From the sequence record NC_054892.1: a stretch of DNA of 48,939 nt. The stretch is one strand, 5' to 3'. Each line of letters begins with the position of its first letter. The first letter of the stretch is position 1. Below are positions 25,055 to 43,224 of the stretch, piece by piece. The notes under the pieces are model-generated. The model worked only from the letters and a program-made list of their open reading frames with translations. It did not search any database and had not been told where the DNA came from. Both the position numbers and the translations under genes were made by a program. This DNA comes from Escherichia phage vB_EcoS_PHB17.

Positions 25055-28000
25055 ATGACAAAAAATGTGATAAGCGGCAGTAAGGGCGGCTCCTCAAAAC
25101 CTTACACACCAAAGGAAATGGAAGATAACCTAATCTCCATTAACAAAATCAAAGTTTTGTTGGCTGTTTCAGATGGTGAGTGCGATCCTAATTTCTCACT
25201 GAAAGATCTGTATTTGAATGATGTTCCGGTGATGAATGAGGATGGTTCATTGAACTATCAAGGCGTGACCGCAGAGTTTCGACCAGGCACGCAAGATCAG
25301 CCATATATCCAGGGTTTCACAGACACAGCAAGCGAAATAACCGTTGCGCGTGACATTACCACTACAACGCCTTTTGTAATTCCAGTTACAAACCGCAACC
25401 TTTCTGCAATCAGAATTAAAATGCTGATGCCGCAGGGCGTTAAGGTTGAGAGTAACGGCGACCGCGTAGGCGTTGAAGTAAAATACAAAGTTGAAATGGC
25501 TGTTGATGGCGGAAGCTATAAAGAAGTTTTAGCCGACACATTCACAGGCAAAACAACAAGCGGATATGATCGCAGTCGTCGAATTGACTTACCAGAATTC
25601 AACGATCAAGTTTTGTTGCGCGTTAGTCGTGTAACGCCTGACAGCACAACTGATCGCGTTGTTGATGGAATCAGGATTCAGAGCTATGCGGAAGTAATCG
25701 ACGCGAAGTTTCGTTATCCGCTGACTGGTTTAGTTTACGTTGAATTTGATTCCGAGCTATTCCCGAATCAGATCCCTAACATTTCTATCAAGAAGAAATG
25801 GAAGATAATCAACGTTCCGAGCAACTACGATCCAGAATCGCGCACGTATAGCGGCACATGGAATGGCACATGGAAAAAGGCATGGACAAACAACCCTGCT
25901 TTCATTCTGTATGATTTGATCACCAATCAGCGCTATGGACTAGATCAAAGGGAGTTGGGAATTCCACTGGACAAGTGGAGCATTTACGAGGCCGCGCAGT
26001 ATTGCGATCAGATGGTTCCAGATGGAAAGGGCGGAACGGAACCGCGCTACCTTTGCGACGTTGTTATTCAGAGCCAGATTGAAGCCTATCAGCTTGTTCG
26101 CGACATTTGCTCTATATTCCGTGGCATGACGTTTTGGAACGGCGAAAGCCTTTCGATTGTGGTTGATAGACCGCGCGAGCCGTCTTACATCTTCACAAAC
26201 GACAACGTTGTTAATGGTGATTTTAGCTACACTTTCGCCAGCGAAAAGACGATGTACACGCAATGCAACGTGACATTCGACGATGAGCAAAACATGTACC
26301 AACAGGACGTTGAGGGCGTTTTTGATGTAGAGGCTTCATTACGTTTCGGGCATAACCCAACGAGCATTACAGCCATTGGATGCACTCGACGCAGCGAGGC
26401 AAACCGCCGTGGGCGCTGGATTCTGAAAACCAACTTGCGCAGCACAACGGTTAACTTTGCAACTGGTCTGGAGGGCATGATCCCATCTATCGGGGATGTG
26501 ATCGCGATTGCGGATAACTTCTGGAGCAGCAACTTAACGCTGAATTTATCAGGTCGTTTAATGGAGGTTTCCGGTTTACAGGTTTTCGTTCCGTTTAAGG
26601 TTGATGCACGCGCTGGTGATTTCATCGTGGTTAACAAGCCAGATGGCAAGCCAGTAAAGCGCACCATATCAAGGGTTAGTGCAGACGGTAAAACGTTAGA
26701 GTTAAACGTTGGGTTTGGTTTTGACGTTCAGCCTGACACCGTGTTTGCTATCGACCGCACTGATATTGCATTGCAACAGTATGTTGTAACAACCATCACC
26801 AGGGGCGATAACGAGGAGGAATTCACCTACTCTATAACGGCTGTTGAATACGATCCGAACAAGTACGATGAAATTGATTATGGCGTGAACATTGACGACC
26901 GCCCAACAAGCATTGTGCAACCTGACGTTATGGCAGCACCGGAAAACGTTGTTGTGTCGTCATACTCGCGAATCGTGCAGGGCTTGAGCGTTGAAACGAT
27001 GCACATTAGTTGGGATAAAGTGCCTTACGCATCGCTGTATGAGGTGCAATGGCGCAAGGATAATGGCAACTGGCATAACGTACCGCAGACAGCCAACAAG
27101 GAAACAGAGGTTGAAGGTATTTATGCGGGGGTTTATCACGTTCGCGTGCGTTCAGTTTCGGCGGCTGGTTCGGCTTCTCCCTGGTCTGCGATTGTCACCG
27201 CTTCTCTGACTGGTAAAGTTGGCGAGCCTGGCAAACCGATAAACCTTACGGCGTCAGATAATGAGGTTTTCGGAATTCGTATTAAATGGGGTATGCCAGA
27301 AGGTGCAACCGATACGGCTTACGTTGAATTGCAGCAAGCGCCTAATGCTGGTGATTTACCAGCAGAAGATCAAGCGTCGCTGTTGTCTTTGATTCCGTAC
27401 CCACAGCACGAATATTGGCACAGCATTTTGCCAGCAGGTTTTATCAACTGGTATCGTGTGCGATCTGTTGACAAAATCGGCAACGTTTCCGGCTGGACTG
27501 ACTTTGTGCGCGGAATGGCTTCAACTGAGCTTGATGATATTTTAGGCGATATTTTAGACGATATCTGGAATTCACCAGGCGGCGAGGCAATCAAGGAAAG
27601 CGCGATTGATAACGCGAACAAGATCAAGGATCAGGCGCAAAGCATCATTCATAACGCGCTCGCAAATGATGCGGATATTAAATGGACGCGCAAAGAGAAC
27701 GGCAAGCGTAAAGCGGAATATGGTCACGCACTGGAGTTAATCGCCAATGAAACAGAGGCGCGAGTAACAGCCATTGAGGAACTAAAGGCAAGCATTGGTG
27801 ACGATATTCAAGGACAGATCACAACCATCAAGGAAGCGGTTGCAAATGAGGAGGAGGCGCGAGTAAAAGCAGTTCAAAACCTTGATGCGAAATTTACGAA
27901 AGAGGTTGAAGGTGTTAGGACTGAAACCGCCGCCAGTATCGGCAGGGTTGACCAGGCGATCACGAATGAAGCAGAGGCAAGGGCGCAAGCCGTTAGCTCA

Positions 28001-28615
28001 CTTGATTCTAAATTCACTGGACAAATCAACGGCGTTAAGCAAGATTTGACGTCTAACATTAGCCGAGTGGATCAGGCAATTGCGAATGAGGCTAGCGCGA
28101 GGGCTTCCGCTGACACGGCGTTAAGCACGCGAGTTGGCAACGCAGAAAGCGCGATTTCACAAAAACTTGATTCATGGATCACTGCGAGCGGAGCGGGTGC
28201 GCAATATGCGTTGAAATTGGGATTGACTTACCAGGGCAAACAGTACGATGCGGGAATGGTGCTATCACTGACCGGAAGCGGGAGCGCTGTAAAATCACAA
28301 GTGCTTTTCGATGCGGCGCGGTTCGGCATTCTAACCAAAGTCGGCGGGGCTTACTCATTGCCTTTCGTGGTTGAAAACAACCAAGTATTCATTAACAGTT
28401 TGTTGGTGAAAAACGGCTCAATCACTAACGCTATGATTGGTAACGAGATCAAATCAAACAACTATGTTGCAGGGCAAACCGGATGGAGGCTGGATAAAAA
28501 CGGCAACCTGGAAATCAACGGCAAGACCGGAACCGGACGCTTGACCATCAACAACAACCTGATCCAGATTTATGACGCAAACAACAGATTGCGCGTAAGA
28601 ATGGGATTGTGGTAA
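25055..28615 (+). CDS. tail tip / central fiber protein (lambda J-like, 1186 aa)
   Basis: Very long ORF closing the M-L-K-I-J set; C-terminal coiled-coil repeats. Confidence 0.85.
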   Translation: MTKNVISGSKGGSSKPYTPKEMEDNLISINKIKVLLAVSDGECDPNFSLKDLYLNDVPVMNEDGSLNYQGVTAEFRPGTQDQPYIQGFTDTASEITVARDITTTTPFVIPVTNRNLSAIRIKMLMPQGVKVESNGDRVGVEVKYKVEMAVDGGSYKEVLADTFTGKTTSGYDRSRRIDLPEFNDQVLLRVSRVTPDSTTDRVVDGIRIQSYAEVIDAKFRYPLTGLVYVEFDSELFPNQIPNISIKKKWKIINVPSNYDPESRTYSGTWNGTWKKAWTNNPAFILYDLITNQRYGLDQRELGIPLDKWSIYEAAQYCDQMVPDGKGGTEPRYLCDVVIQSQIEAYQLVRDICSIFRGMTFWNGESLSIVVDRPREPSYIFTNDNVVNGDFSYTFASEKTMYTQCNVTFDDEQNMYQQDVEGVFDVEASLRFGHNPTSITAIGCTRRSEANRRGRWILKTNLRSTTVNFATGLEGMIPSIGDVIAIADNFWSSNLTLNLSGRLMEVSGLQVFVPFKVDARAGDFIVVNKPDGKPVKRTISRVSADGKTLELNVGFGFDVQPDTVFAIDRTDIALQQYVVTTITRGDNEEEFTYSITAVEYDPNKYDEIDYGVNIDDRPTSIVQPDVMAAPENVVVSSYSRIVQGLSVETMHISWDKVPYASLYEVQWRKDNGNWHNVPQTANKETEVEGIYAGVYHVRVRSVSAAGSASPWSAIVTASLTGKVGEPGKPINLTASDNEVFGIRIKWGMPEGATDTAYVELQQAPNAGDLPAEDQASLLSLIPYPQHEYWHSILPAGFINWYRVRSVDKIGNVSGWTDFVRGMASTELDDILGDILDDIWNSPGGEAIKESAIDNANKIKDQAQSIIHNALANDADIKWTRKENGKRKAEYGHALELIANETEARVTAIEELKASIGDDIQGQITTIKEAVANEEEARVKAVQNLDAKFTKEVEGVRTETAASIGRVDQAITNEAEARAQAVSSLDSKFTGQINGVKQDLTSNISRVDQAIANEASARASADTALSTRVGNAESAISQKLDSWITASGAGAQYALKLGLTYQGKQYDAGMVLSLTGSGSAVKSQVLFDAARFGILTKVGGAYSLPFVVENNQVFINSLLVKNGSITNAMIGNEIKSNNYVAGQTGWRLDKNGNLEINGKTGTGRLTINNNLIQIYDANNRLRVRMGLW

Positions 28616-32285: not shown

Positions 32286-32705
32286 ATGCCGCATATTATT
32301 ACTGGCGAGTTACGCAAAGAGCCTTACACAAAAGAGGGGCAAAACAATTCCGGCGCATACAAAATGTACATCGTCGAACTATCAGAAAGCATCAAAGACC
32401 GCCAGACAAACGAGCGAGTTTATACCAATTACAGCGCCACATTCTTTGCATCAAGCGATGCAATGCGCGGTTGGTACGATGAGGCGTTACAGGCCGGAAA
32501 GGTGATTAGCGTTTCATCTGAGGCGCTCAAAATCAATCAGCGTGAGCATAACGGGCAAACCTATATCACGTTACAGATGGAGCAACCGCGTTTAGTGTTC
32601 AGTCAGCGCGGAGCCGGATCGCCGCATAAATCAGGCCAACAACAAAGCCAGCCGCAGCGCCAGCCGTCACCACAACAGAATTTCGACGACGATATTCCTT
32701 TCTGA
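32286..32705 (+). CDS. ssb: single-stranded DNA-binding protein (139 aa)
   Basis: Q/P-rich tail ending DDDIPF. Confidence 0.8.
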   Translation: MPHIITGELRKEPYTKEGQNNSGAYKMYIVELSESIKDRQTNERVYTNYSATFFASSDAMRGWYDEALQAGKVISVSSEALKINQREHNGQTYITLQMEQPRLVFSQRGAGSPHKSGQQQSQPQRQPSPQQNFDDDIPF

Positions 32706-32715
32706 TTGGCAGGAA

Positions 32716-32748
32716 AAAGAAAACCCCGCATTGCGGGGTTTTTTATTA
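32716..32748. terminator. bidirectional rho-independent terminator
   Basis: AAAACCCCGC-ATT-GCGGGGTTTTTT between convergent SSB and tail fiber genes. Confidence 0.8.
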
Positions 32749-34899
32749 CTTATTGACAAGTTGAGAAACAATGGCTTTTAACTCCTCAACTTCTTTCTCA
32801 AGGTTTGCGATCCTTTCCTTGTTCGCTTCGTCACGCGCACGCAATGCCTTAATCGCTGCAAGACCATCCAAAAGCATTGGCGTCTGGTCAAGGTGATAAT
32901 AATCTCCGACTTTCCAGACGTATTCTTTATCGATCTTCATAATCTGCTGACTAATGACGCCGCGACGGGCGCTACGATCAGGCGCGTCATCCTTGAATCT
33001 GAACAGCTTAAACTCCATTCGATTCACGTTATCTAACGCACCCTCAAGGTTAAGGTTACCTTTAATGTCCTTCAGGGTCTCATCTGATACAGCCGATGTT
33101 GTCACCTTAACCCAATCTCGCCACGTTGTAGACAGATCATCGCCAGCGCGTGAGTAAAGTTCGTTTGTGACCTTGTTCCAACAAAGCTGCCCGGTATAGT
33201 TACCAGAAACGCGATCAGGGCCTCGACCGAAAGAAGTTAAGATCCCGAAACCGCTAAAAGGAATTCCGTCGGCGGTTGTTGTTGCGTTAGTAAAAGTCCT
33301 AAACTCCGTATTTCTTCGGGAGTTGGCGTTCAACTGACCAGCGGCGCTAGTGAAGTAAGCAACGTTAACCATCATTTCACCGCTAATCTGAGCAAACGGA
33401 ATTCTTATTTGCCCGGCTTTGTTGCCATCCCTTCTTCTTGCAATAAGAGATGGAACAGCACCAGACTGCGGGCCGAGTTCGAACATCGCCCTTGAGAATA
33501 AATCGGTCTCCGCCCTATCGGTATTATCAATAATAAAGGCGGGATATCCACCATGTTCAGCAACAAAATCACCTCCCTTCGCCCTGACGTTGCCATCATT
33601 AATATTAAGATCGCCGCCGCCATAAATAAGAGTCCCGGCGCTAATAGTCATCTTTCCTTTAGCGATCGTCGAACTTCCTTCCGCTACGTAGATCCTTGCG
33701 TCATAGTCATTCCCAGTCCCAGATGAATGGAAGTCGATAAAAGCAGGCGTTTTTGTCGTCACGCTTCCAAGTTCAACTCCAGTATCGCCAGTGTTTTGGC
33801 TTCCTACCTGAAGGCCGCCAGTTAAAATATATTGTGAACCAGTCCAGCTATTGGAAGTATTTAATAACGGGATAGTGCCGCCAGACGTTCCGATATTATA
33901 AGTTGATGCGCTGCCAAGACCTAAATTTGTGCGTGACAATGCCTTATCAGCAACGTCTGAAAGGTTATTCTCTTTCTGCATCAACTTGCTTGTTTCGAAA
34001 GAATCCGCCAAGCGTTGAGCTCGATCAGCTTCGTTTTTCGCAGTAGTCGCAGAACCAGCGGCGGCAGTTGCAGAACCAGCGGCGGCAGTCTTAGACGCAT
34101 CAGCGGATTGCGCAGATTGCGCGGCCTGATTCTTTGACGTGTTTGCGGCTGTTTCGCTCGCCTTTGCTTTTGTCTCGCTGGTCTTAGAGTTAGTCTCGCT
34201 TGTCTTTGCGGCTGTTGCAGATGCGGCGGCGGCTGTCTGGCTTGCCCTTGCTGCATTCTCTGACGCTTTCGAGTTTGTTTCACTGGTTTTCGCGGCTGTC
34301 TGGCTTGCCTTTGCTGCATTCTCTGACGCTTTGGAGTTTGTTTCACTGGTCTTTGCGGCGGCTTGTGATGCAGCGGCGGCGATCTGGCTTGCGCTTGCTG
34401 AATCCTGGCTAACCTTCGAGGCGTCCTGGCTTTTCTTCGCTTCCGTTTGGCTTGTCTTTGCTGCAACCTCTGACGCTTTGGCGTTGGTGGCGGCTGTTTC
34501 AGCTTTGGCGGCATTTTGCTTTGTTGATTCGTCCAGCGCTTCCAGTTTTTTCCAGTCGAACGTTTTAAGGAATTCAACAAATTCCTCATACATCGTTTCT
34601 TTCCCCTGGTAGTATCGCAGCGTTTCAGCAACATCTTGTGCCAGGCCATCAACGGTGATTGAGTCATGCAGCAGGATCACATAATCAGTGCGATCAATAA
34701 CAGCACCTCCCGTAGCGGTTGCACGGATTGACGTGTCGCTAATCACTTCTGAAATTGTTGCGTATGTTGCTGGGCTTGTTGCAAACACGATTGTTGCACC
34801 TGAGCGAATCAGGGTTAACTGATCGCGCCACGATGTGTTATAGCCTGTAATGTAGCCTTGAGCGTCCATTGACGCTTGCCCCTTACGATAAATAGACAT
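32746..34899 (-). CDS. tail fiber protein with C-terminal intramolecular chaperone domain (717 aa)
   Basis: 21-aa Ala/Lys/Thr/Ser repeats, Gly-rich middle, C-terminal self-cleaving chaperone-like domain; AGGAG RBS. Confidence 0.75.
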   Translation of the reverse strand: MSIYRKGQASMDAQGYITGYNTSWRDQLTLIRSGATIVFATSPATYATISEVISDTSIRATATGGAVIDRTDYVILLHDSITVDGLAQDVAETLRYYQGKETMYEEFVEFLKTFDWKKLEALDESTKQNAAKAETAATNAKASEVAAKTSQTEAKKSQDASKVSQDSASASQIAAAASQAAAKTSETNSKASENAAKASQTAAKTSETNSKASENAARASQTAAAASATAAKTSETNSKTSETKAKASETAANTSKNQAAQSAQSADASKTAAAGSATAAAGSATTAKNEADRAQRLADSFETSKLMQKENNLSDVADKALSRTNLGLGSASTYNIGTSGGTIPLLNTSNSWTGSQYILTGGLQVGSQNTGDTGVELGSVTTKTPAFIDFHSSGTGNDYDARIYVAEGSSTIAKGKMTISAGTLIYGGGDLNINDGNVRAKGGDFVAEHGGYPAFIIDNTDRAETDLFSRAMFELGPQSGAVPSLIARRRDGNKAGQIRIPFAQISGEMMVNVAYFTSAAGQLNANSRRNTEFRTFTNATTTADGIPFSGFGILTSFGRGPDRVSGNYTGQLCWNKVTNELYSRAGDDLSTTWRDWVKVTTSAVSDETLKDIKGNLNLEGALDNVNRMEFKLFRFKDDAPDRSARRGVISQQIMKIDKEYVWKVGDYYHLDQTPMLLDGLAAIKALRARDEANKERIANLEKEVEELKAIVSQLVNK
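34140..34360. repeat. 63-bp tandem repeats (about 3.5 copies) inside tail fiber gene
   Basis: Near-identical units starting at 34231 and 34294 with diverged flanking copies; encode 21-aa repeat AAKTSETNSKASENAAKASQT. Confidence 0.75.
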
Positions 34900-34962: not shown

Positions 34963-34988
34963 ATAAAAAAACCCCGCCGGAGCGGGGC
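34963..34988 (-). terminator. rho-independent terminator (minus strand)
   Basis: CCCCGC-TCCG-GCGGGG plus T8 on minus strand after primase-like gene. Confidence 0.7.
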
Positions 34989-35002: not shown

Positions 35003-35950
35003 CTAAAGGAAAGTTTCAGGCTTATACAGCTTTCTTTCTATCCCTTGTTTGAAATTATCGTTAATCGGGATCATCACGTCAAGTTCTCTTTCTTCGGCGG
35101 CAATCAACACATCCTGATCGGTAGACTTGCACACTACGCGCATTTTTCTGTTTCCTTTATACCTGTACGCCACGATCTCAAGATTGTACTGTGAGAAACA
35201 ACACCAAACCTCTTGCCCCGTCGAAAGGTGGATATGTTGAGCATCAACCCAATCAACGCACAAATAGATCGTGTTTTCAGTTTTGCCAGTCACCGCAACT
35301 GAGCCGCGCGTGTAATCCTTCGCATAAAAACTTTGCTTGCCGTTCTCATCAATGAAAAGGATGTTACACATTTCATCATCAAGTTCATCGTCATGCACCA
35401 GGTAGCACGGTATGGCGTGAATAAGCGATTCTCCGCCATTCTCAAGCGTTTTAACGCCTACGGAATACATTTCATCACCAGGAAGTGCTATCCCTTCAAA
35501 AACGCTTAGAGGCGTCTTACTGCGTAATTCCGTGCGCTCCATTACAGAGGCGCAATTCTCATGCGGAGCCTGAGATCCGAAAGTGTAACCGGATGCACGG
35601 CTTGCACGCTTATTGGCCTTTATCCGGTACTCTTGCGGAACCTTTCCGAGAAAGCGACCCAGGATGTTAATTACTTCGCTGTATGGCTCTCCTGTTAGCT
35701 TCATCATCCAGCCCACGCCGGAATCGTTACCACAGCCGTTGCACACCGCGCCGCCGTCGCCGTCCTGACTCAATTTGTCAGTCCACCTAAAACGGTCTTT
35801 ACCTCCGCAATTAGGGCAGGGCTGGTGCTTTTTGTTGAAAACATCCGAGCTTAAACCGCATATTGACTGCAACGCATCGCGCCACAACCCTTTCATATAC
35901 GGTAAAACCTCCTCTTTCTGAAACATCATGTTTTCGTTAATGTCGCTCAT
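35003..35950 (-). CDS. DNA primase-like protein with zinc ribbon (315 aa)
   Basis: CPNCGGKDRFRW ... CNGCGN zinc-ribbon motif near N-terminus. Confidence 0.6.
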   Translation of the reverse strand: MSDINENMMFQKEEVLPYMKGLWRDALQSICGLSSDVFNKKHQPCPNCGGKDRFRWTDKLSQDGDGGAVCNGCGNDSGVGWMMKLTGEPYSEVINILGRFLGKVPQEYRIKANKRASRASGYTFGSQAPHENCASVMERTELRSKTPLSVFEGIALPGDEMYSVGVKTLENGGESLIHAIPCYLVHDDELDDEMCNILFIDENGKQSFYAKDYTRGSVAVTGKTENTIYLCVDWVDAQHIHLSTGQEVWCCFSQYNLEIVAYRYKGNRKMRVVCKSTDQDVLIAAEERELDVMIPINDNFKQGIERKLYKPETFL

Positions 35951-42841: not shown

Positions 42842-43224
42842 AACGATTAGCGGCAATCATGATGGTTATGGCTCTTTCCGGTTGTTCAGCGTCAAGCGCT
42901 CTGACTGGTTTGATTGGCAGTAAGCCGGAAGTAACAGCCCAAGCCGGAGCGGAAAACATAAAGCAAACCGTGGGCGTGACAGCAAAGCAGGACACCAGCA
43001 GCAAGCAGGAAACCAGCTTTGAAAAGTCTAACGTTGGAAAGGTTGACACCTCAAACAAAAAGAAGGTGAGCGCCTCCAGCATTCAAGCTGAAACAATCAC
43101 GGCGGAAAGGATAGAGATCAGGAATACAGATAGCGGGTTAGATTGGAAGGTTAGCGCGTTATTCTTTGCTGTAATTTCTATCGTGCTGTTTCTCATCGGA
43201 TACAAAAGCAAGAAAGGAGCCTAA
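42838..43224 (+). CDS. unimolecular spanin (128 aa)
   Basis: Lipobox ALSGC at N-terminus plus C-terminal transmembrane helix, the arrangement known from phage T1. Confidence 0.8.

Follow-up and report, generated by a model that had tools for sequence, protein, structure and literature searches.

Trimer models of Drexlerviridae tail fibers built with AlphaFold2 (AF2) show an elongated N-terminal coiled coil, then a T5-like/beta-structured tip, and then an IMC/ICA domain (PMC11990801; PMC12090712). Binding to a surface glycan, the O-antigen of lipopolysaccharide (LPS), as the first receptor has been reported or proposed for relatives of the phage studied here (PMC12090712). Helical N-terminal segments are also known from other phages: the part of the Klebsiella phage RAD2 depolymerase DpK2 that precedes residue 191 appears by cryo-electron microscopy as an extended triple helical bundle, which was left unmodelled (PMC8552709), and a region of DT57C LtfA projects from the tail tip as a coiled coil of three helices (PMC10713586). 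Here, we describe a tandem repeat in the side (lateral) tail fiber gene of Escherichia phage vB_EcoS_PHB17 (hereafter PHB17), a T1-like member of the Drexlerviridae. The window, i.e., the whole stretch of DNA analyzed, is the complete 48,939-bp genome of this phage (NC_054892.1). The fiber gene occupies positions 32746..34899 of the minus strand, and all fiber features below are on the same strand.

The 717-aa open reading frame (ORF) at this position is an exact database match to tail fiber protein QDH94260.1 / YP_010064626.1 of PHB17, and PHROG tail fiber families are matched with E-values down to 3e-89. A primase-like ORF (35003..35950, minus strand) lies upstream. Primase and fiber genes are arranged in the same order in the genomes of damhaus and aaroes, as well as in the metagenomic relatives L003, L004, and L006, and position beside the primase gene is a property of the lateral fibers of Drexlerviridae/Dhillonvirus phages in general (damhaus gp24, aaroes gp77, JakobBernoulli (Bas07) Gp36, and gp28 of Cronobacter phages CRES7/CRES9). 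With these fibers, the PHB17 protein shares an N-terminal anchor homologous to that of other family members, a long heptad shaft (an elongated, predicted coiled coil), a distal binding part, and a C-terminal intramolecular chaperone of the Peptidase_S74 type. The shaft cassettes of damhaus and aaroes are 92% identical to that of PHB17 at the DNA level, and GenBank 'repeat_region' features are already present there. Unlike these fibers, PHB17 has a distal part of its own. We propose, with a probability of roughly 85%, that the 63-bp repeats of the PHB17 gene are three-heptad blocks of a long helical fiber shaft, and that whole heptads are gained or lost by occasional recombination.

Tandem Repeats Finder detected a period of 63 at positions 34229-34359 (2.1 copies, 94% matches), a period of 21 at 34138-34215 and 34045-34090, and a period of 147 at 34187-34485. 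In the protein register, 63-bp unit A (AAKTSETNSKASENAAKASQT, aa 181-201) occupies 34297..34359 and unit B (AAKTSETNSKASENAARASQT, aa 202-222) occupies 34234..34296. A spacer heptad, AAAASAT (aa 223-229, 34213..34233), follows, and shifts unit C (AAKTSETNSKTSETKAKASET, aa 230-250, 34150..34212) by 21 bp relative to the 63-bp register. Units A and B are equal at 59 of 63 bases (93.7%; 34234-34359), with three of the four differences being synonymous, while unit C is diverged, at 71% identity to A and 67% to B. An earlier, sequence-only reading of this DNA had placed about 3.5 copies of a 63-bp unit, encoding a 21-residue repeat, in the N-terminal part of a tail fiber. The repeat is indeed where that reading put it, in a tail fiber gene and in the product's N-terminal part (aa 181-250 of 717), and its unit is indeed 21 residues long, but the copy number has to be lowered to two good copies and a displaced, 71%-identical third. 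To evaluate the significance of the A/B similarity, we shuffled codons within each heptad position, keeping heptad composition. In 2000 such shuffles, the best adjacent 63-nt identity was 0.557 ± 0.042 (maximum 0.762), and the value of 0.937 was never reached. The A/B repeat is thus beyond chance, even against a null that preserves composition.

The 63-bp units are part of a larger array. Twenty-six consecutive heptads with the consensus x-A-K-[A/T]-S-[E/Q]-[T/N] extend from aa 118 to aa 299 (34003-34548) without a register break; heptad position 2 is alanine in 20 of the 26, and position 5 is serine in 21. When the DNA is compared with itself, identity reaches 0.40-0.55 at lags of 21 and its multiples and falls to 0.23-0.25 at lags 20, 22, 62, and 64 (0.35 at lag 30). 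Heptads outside the A/B doublet are, on average, 44% identical in DNA. The array includes a tandem heptad doublet, AAAGSAT AAAGSAT (aa 272-285, 34045..34086; period 21, 92% matches), and an older higher-order duplication with a period of 147 bp, or seven heptads (34187..34485; two copies ~76% alike, with in-register 63-nt blocks 147 nt apart being 0.70-0.78 identical). Since self-identity peaks at every multiple of 21, both the 63-bp and the 147-bp periods are higher-order repeats of a 21-bp unit. The base unit of the array is therefore the 21-bp heptad, and the 63-bp units are a higher-order feature within the 26-heptad array.

The structure of the fiber monomer was predicted with AF2 using a 54-sequence alignment (mean predicted local distance difference test score, pLDDT, of 61). 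In the model, aa 116-298 form a single uninterrupted helix with pLDDT of 62-84. Together with the heptad register and the lag-21 periodicity of the DNA, this delimits a heptad-repeat shaft at aa 116-299 (34003..34554). The 3/4 spacing of Ala-2 and Ser-5 would correspond to the a/d positions in a coiled-coil core. The anchor and the first heptads (query aa 1-171) match RAD2 DpK2 (PDB 7LZJ; related entries 7VYV/7VZ3) with an E-value of 3.8e-43, and by analogy with the helical bundle of that homolog, the modelled PHB17 shaft is most likely a trimeric coiled coil. The helical stretch of DpK2 is short (~7-8 heptads) and leads into a beta-helix depolymerase, in contrast to the 26 heptads and fiber-type distal part of PHB17. 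The shaft itself weakly matches the T5-family L-shaped fiber LtfA/pb1 (DT57C LtfA, PDB 8HQZ chain d; matched by aa 131-300) and the shaft of T7 gp17, with E-values of 0.004-0.014. These proteins also have Ala/Ser-rich heptads near the N terminus; this similarity is marginal and largely compositional, LtfA differs in being attached by a lasso in the LtfC collar, and we do not claim membership of this group for the PHB17 fiber. Coiled-coil geometry is ~0.148 nm per residue. From this geometry, the shaft would be ~27 nm long, a heptad would contribute ~1 nm, and a 63-bp unit would contribute ~3.1 nm.

In the proposed scheme, the shaft would join the N-terminal tail-attachment domain to the distal receptor-binding part and to the chaperone domain, which cleaves itself, at the C terminus. 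Past duplications of three- and seven-heptad blocks would be recorded in the periods of 63 and 147 bp, respectively, with the A/B doublet being an old duplication common to relatives. Because heptad codons recur many times, homologous recombination could occasionally proceed in a misaligned fashion, and would then delete, duplicate, or overwrite blocks. Such changes would always involve whole heptads, so the helix register would survive, and the length of the shaft would shift by ~1 nm per heptad, or 3.1 nm per 63-bp unit.

The age of the A/B doublet was estimated by comparing PHB17 with its relatives. The cassette is present in identical register in three metagenomic genomes (P0002, P0013, and P0022) and in damhaus at the DNA level, and the same arrangement is seen at the protein level in P0012 and P0032. 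When units of the same type are compared across genomes (A with A, B with B), they are 89-97% identical, whereas A and B within each relative are only 81-86% identical. Since orthologous copies are closer than paralogous ones, the duplication predates these phages, and the sequence comparison indicates that the two-copy state is ancestral and conserved. It was kept in the relatives despite 3-11% nucleotide divergence within the units. PHB17 is an outlier in that its A and B, at 93.7%, are more alike than in any relative. Four sites distinguish A from B in all four relatives compared; at three of them (41, 45, and 52, but not 6), unit A of PHB17 has the B base, in its 3' part. This pattern suggests that unit A was probably partly homogenised by a short and patchy conversion event in which B was the donor. 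A similar phenomenon may have affected the heptad doublet at aa 272-285, which reads AAAVSAT AAAVSAT in damhaus (L001), whereas PHB17 and five other relatives have AAAGSAT AAAGSAT; the presence of the same substitution in both damhaus copies suggests that the two 21-bp heptads of this doublet evolve in concert.

A scan of IMG/VR with a unit-B DNA pattern matched the genome of PHB17 alone. The PHB17 fiber is the sole member of its 90%-identity cluster, and the sequences compared contain no second PHB17 isolate. A protein search with the shaft only (aa 160-306, cut-off 1e-20) returned a single weak match and missed the query itself, probably due to low-complexity bias correction together with the strictness of this cut-off, and was of no use for detecting copy-number variants.

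A unit-C DNA pattern retrieved L008, a 3.8-kb contig from a short-read metagenome. The fiber encoded there has 776 aa and, downstream of the shaft, shares 96% identity with that of P0022. The arrangement of its shaft is [B][spacer][C][C] instead of the [A][B][spacer][C] found in the others, i.e., there is one A/B-type unit rather than two, while the two tandem C units match at 62 of 63 bases; the total length is unchanged. This arrangement would be explained by a single patch of gene conversion in which the donor was out of alignment by 63 nt, or by a loss combined with a gain. A change in the number of heptads is seen in aaroes, whose 685-aa fiber is aligned to the 776-aa fiber of P0022 with one gap of 273 nt, equal to 13 heptads. 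The gap begins and ends within AAKTSET heptads, which have GCAAAGACAAGCGA (14 nt) in common, and the sequences downstream of it are mostly 95-100% identical (89-100% across 150-nt windows). Among the members listed of the 90%-identity cluster of P0022, 10 of 15 are 776 aa long, aaroes is 685 aa long, and four are 678 aa long. The 678-aa alleles lack 14 heptads; at the protein level their junction, AAKTSET|NAKASET, is unlike that of aaroes, and it is the same in three distinct sequences among the four alleles, which come from different assemblies.

These data bear on the view that the locus is hypermutable and of the contingency type, with frequent slippage of 63-bp units generating fiber-length variants in every phage population. 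The 93.7% identity of the adjacent A and B copies and the differences in repeat units among relatives speak for such a locus. However, there are just two high-identity copies rather than many short perfect units, the two copies are conserved in P0002, P0013, P0022, and damhaus (DNA) and in P0012 and P0032 (protein) in the face of the divergence given above, two-thirds of the listed members of the P0022 cluster are equal in length, and the greater closeness of orthologous copies implies a turnover slower than sequence divergence. We therefore consider frequent slippage very unlikely. The sequence comparisons indicate that unit change is real on evolutionary timescales but rare, and nothing points to rapid slippage. 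The expectation of the sequence-only reading that copy number can change is thus borne out as far as recombination is concerned (L008, aaroes, and the 678-aa alleles differ, so copy number is not identical in all related genomes), but not for slippage, given the conserved two-copy state.

Whether the repeat, or its variants in relatives, could be artefacts of sequence assembly was also considered. Short-read assemblers can collapse or expand repeats, and L008, as well as most of the relatives, comes from metagenome assemblies. On the other hand, 63-bp units are shorter than typical reads, and the A/B arrangement recurs in the genome of the isolate damhaus and in three independent metagenome assemblies, with P0012 and P0032 in agreement at the protein level. 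In aaroes, another isolate genome, the sequence shared at the junction is only 14 nt long, which would not suffice for the collapse of a k=141 graph, and the 14-heptad deletion recurs in four alleles (three distinct sequences) from different assemblies. An assembly artefact is, in our estimate, extremely improbable.

Shaft length was next compared across homologs as the distance from the N-terminal anchor to a conserved NLSD motif; the C-side anchor scored above 40 in 118 of 120 homologs. The distance varies between 49 and 196 residues, or 7 and 28 heptads, and 91 of the 118 homologs differ from PHB17 by exact multiples of seven residues. The same heptad register is present in these homologs, including those with very different sequences. 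Four of them (P0037, P0033, P0028, and P0029) have near-identical shaft ends and 8, 13, 16, and 21 heptads, respectively. The comparison indicates that change proceeds in steps of one 21-bp heptad and not of the 63-bp unit alone. The remaining 27 homologs do not fit the 7n series, the deviation being 3 or 5 residues in 23 cases (distance classes 185, 192, 138, 149, and 191); they may contain coiled-coil stutters or stammers, or other linkers at the shaft end (e.g., RAQSANPDNQLKK). The sequence-only reading had also suggested that repeat turnover can alter fiber length. The 7- to 28-heptad range agrees with this, but the sole exact 63-bp change observed, that of L008, is length-neutral, and an effect on physical length would follow from helix geometry. 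Some differences in annotated length are spurious: gene callers extended fiber ORFs of relatives to upstream in-frame ATGs, by 7 aa in L008 (1341-3692, minus strand) and by 33 aa in P0123, and the added residues, which precede the conserved MAIYR start, are not heptad multiples.

The comparison of homologs is also relevant to an interpretation in which the Ala/Ser/Thr-rich region is a low-complexity flexible or beta linker, the heptad pattern being a by-product of DNA duplication. The small polar core (Ala/Ser) is unusual for canonical coiled coils, and a Pfam scan of the fiber at E-values up to 1 found nothing on aa 116-299, with no repeat or coiled-coil family matched and PF13884 and a sub-threshold PF21930 match as the sole results. 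However, the register is kept over 26 heptads and across very different homologs, and indels are multiples of seven in 91 of 118 of them. AF2 gives one helix, and the homologous region of DpK2 is a triple helical bundle, while that of DT57C LtfA is a three-helix coiled coil. The linker interpretation thus appears highly unlikely. Collagen-like and Pfam fiber-repeat families (e.g., Phage_fiber_2) were ruled out for the shaft, as there was no profile match.

The fiber genes of the relatives are mosaic. A cassette corresponding to aa 160-299 has 87-98% DNA identity to P0013, P0022, and damhaus, while the N-terminal 160 codons are 40-78% identical and the sequences beyond ~aa 320 are unrelated. 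P0002 tracks PHB17 at 82-100% (mostly >90%) up to ~aa 320 and then diverges. In megablast, alignments extend over no more than 13-18% of the fiber gene. Carriers of the shaft cassette have total lengths of 717, 720, 776, 826, and 856 aa and differ in their distal parts. The shaft is followed by a conserved junction motif, MQKENNLSDVADKALSRTNLGLGSASTYN (aa 307-335, 33895..33981), with K309, N312, and L313 invariant in 54 homologs; identity to relatives drops sharply after ~aa 320, which makes this motif a mosaic border. The same motif was the C-side anchor from which shaft length was measured. A possible explanation, to which we give tentative weight, is that the repeat is mainly a conserved cassette serving as a homologous crossover site for the exchange of anchors and distal modules, with changes in length being a side effect. 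The high identity of the cassette between flanks that are 40-78% identical or unrelated, and the occurrence of one shaft module in fibers of 717-856 aa with different distal parts, agree with this. However, mosaic borders are also located at the conserved NLSD motif, outside the repeat, and the in-phase internal indels are left unexplained. A crossover role is, moreover, compatible with recombinational gain and loss of whole heptads in a helical shaft and does not exclude it; judging from the alignments, the shaft and the adjoining NLSD motif may also act as recombination borders for module exchange, which would complement that reading.

Several observations weigh against the reading of the repeats as blocks of a helical shaft changed by recombination. 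The copy number of A/B is equal in every relative that retains the full module, i.e., the repeat that drew attention to this locus is itself stable, and the unit-level change in L008 leaves length as it was; the L008 repeat might conceivably be misassembled. The conversion signal in PHB17 unit A is patchy: site 50, between converted sites 45 and 52, keeps the A-type base, and independent substitutions are a possible alternative source of the B bases. Support for a trimeric shaft comes from homologs (PMC8552709, PMC10713586, PMC12090712), the prediction for PHB17 itself being that of a monomer. The empty Pfam scan of the shaft belongs here as well.

The codon pattern supports the fiber frame. 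In comparisons with four relatives, synonymous and non-synonymous codon differences in this frame range from 13:8 to 16:22, an enrichment of synonymous changes. Differences in the alternative frames are mostly non-synonymous, the sole exception being the antisense frame that shares third positions and has similar counts, as expected. The substitution patterns rule out as genes three ORFs lying across the repeat, one on the minus strand (33981..34667) and two on the plus strand (34139..34612 and 34200..34412); frames stay open across the repeat because its composition is biased and stop-poor.

Repeat-containing rods of variable size are known in other systems. In streptococcal M proteins, the adenovirus fiber shaft, and T4 fibritin (gpwac), the number of in-frame repeats is changed by intragenic recombination, which alters the length of the rod without breaking its register. 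These proteins and their repeat sequences are unrelated to the PHB17 fiber, and in adenovirus the shaft is built as a triple beta-spiral rather than as a coiled coil. What the fibers have in common with the size-variable rods are in-frame unit indels between close alleles, with junctions inside repeats (aaroes, the 678-aa alleles, and L008). Size variation of M proteins is frequent and serves immune evasion, while size change in PHB17-type fibers appears to be rare. The general architecture of the fiber, the repeat_region flags, and the repeat-mediated length change of fibrous proteins were already known, so the mechanism is not new. New here are the heptad/63-bp/147-bp hierarchy, a doublet that is ancestral yet appears partly homogenised, and natural alleles with in-phase block changes at repeat junctions.

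The other domains of the fiber could be assigned as follows. The N-terminal tail-attachment (anchor) domain comprises aa 1-115 (34555..34899), as judged from the DpK2 match, the AF2 model, and tblastn. Its beta-rich part is aa 1-77, with beta strands at pLDDT of 73-91, and a tblastn search with aa 1-117 retrieved 879 phage records, 868 of them at ≥80% coverage. The distal part, aa 336-604 (33088..33894), is presumably receptor-binding; it was modelled with pLDDT mostly below 50 and gives a sub-threshold match to Pfam PF21930, a beta-helical trimerisation family. No counterpart of aa 330-512 was found among 136 other related proteins compared, while partial homologs with 41-48% identity exist in this set for aa 513-600 only; as far as these comparisons go, PHB17 may carry an uncommon receptor-binding module at aa 330-604 (33088-33910). 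The C-terminal intramolecular chaperone domain (Peptidase_S74; aa 605-717, 32749..33087) is supported by a match to PF13884 (E-value 4.5e-07; 30.5 bits against a cut-off of 22) and by AF2 (pLDDT 64-87). In a Foldseek search of the AF2 model against the PDB, this domain matched the ICA domain of MyRF (7dc3, E-value 5.5e-05) and, weakly, the endosialidase chaperone (3gw6, E-values 0.08-0.5). It was the only part of the model to be matched, the lone helix being uninformative and the distal part having pLDDT below 50.

A consensus scan revealed a strong terminator-like hairpin readable on both strands at 32718..32744 (12-pair stem, T runs on both sides), which separates the fiber gene from a convergent upstream operon whose nearest gene ends at 32705. 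A GC-rich hairpin with a T run is present at 34971-34988 (minus strand), between the primase-like gene and the fiber start, and a 10/12 match to a sigma-70-like promoter is located a short way upstream, at 35054-35082 (minus strand), inside the end of the primase gene. On the basis of these predicted signals, the fiber gene may be a transcription unit of its own. No tRNA gene or Rfam match was found in scans of the window. Short tandem repeats with periods of 18 and 12 occur elsewhere in the genome, at 42980-43017, 27536-27564, and 25853-25875, and two of these three are within the 1186-aa central fiber (gpJ-like) ORF at 25055..28615. PHB17 structural genes are 74-85% identical to those of many T1-like Drexlerviridae phages, with the nearest in the phage collection being ~80-85% identical. 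An HNH_3 (PF13392) endonuclease gene is located directly downstream of the P0022 fiber gene (L004, 3785-4270, minus strand), a place where L003 and L006 lack it; the gene may encode a mobile homing endonuclease adjoining the mosaic fiber locus. About 20 records of 'Campylobacter phages' (e.g., A121 and A110b; 44-48 kb, host given as Campylobacter jejuni) contain T1-like structural genes, and their fiber anchor domains are 54-74% identical to that of PHB17, which is unexpected for Campylobacter. These records may have mis-assigned hosts or may represent contaminating coliphages.

T1-like phages first meet the host surface through their side tail fibers, and the modular build of these fibers is used in host-range engineering. 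The shaft, a strict heptad array that tolerates in-phase loss, gain, and overwriting of blocks and undergoes them in nature, suggests a simple design rule for chimeric or length-adjusted fibers, namely, that they be cut and joined at heptad boundaries, e.g., at AAKTSET. It also offers an explanation for mosaic fiber genes, and short-read assemblies of such genes need checking. A more speculative and, to us, doubtful idea is that shaft length is a selected, tunable property. A length of 27 heptads would be held by length-neutral misaligned conversion, as in L008, where 63-bp units are reshuffled relative to P0022 and the shaft stays at 27 heptads, and as in the homogenised A/B units of PHB17, and the recurrent loss of half the length would be an adaptive short-fiber morph. 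If this is true, the short morph (13-14 heptads, or ~14 nm, lost in aaroes and in the four 678-aa alleles) would alter the surface-glycan layers or hosts that the phage can reach.

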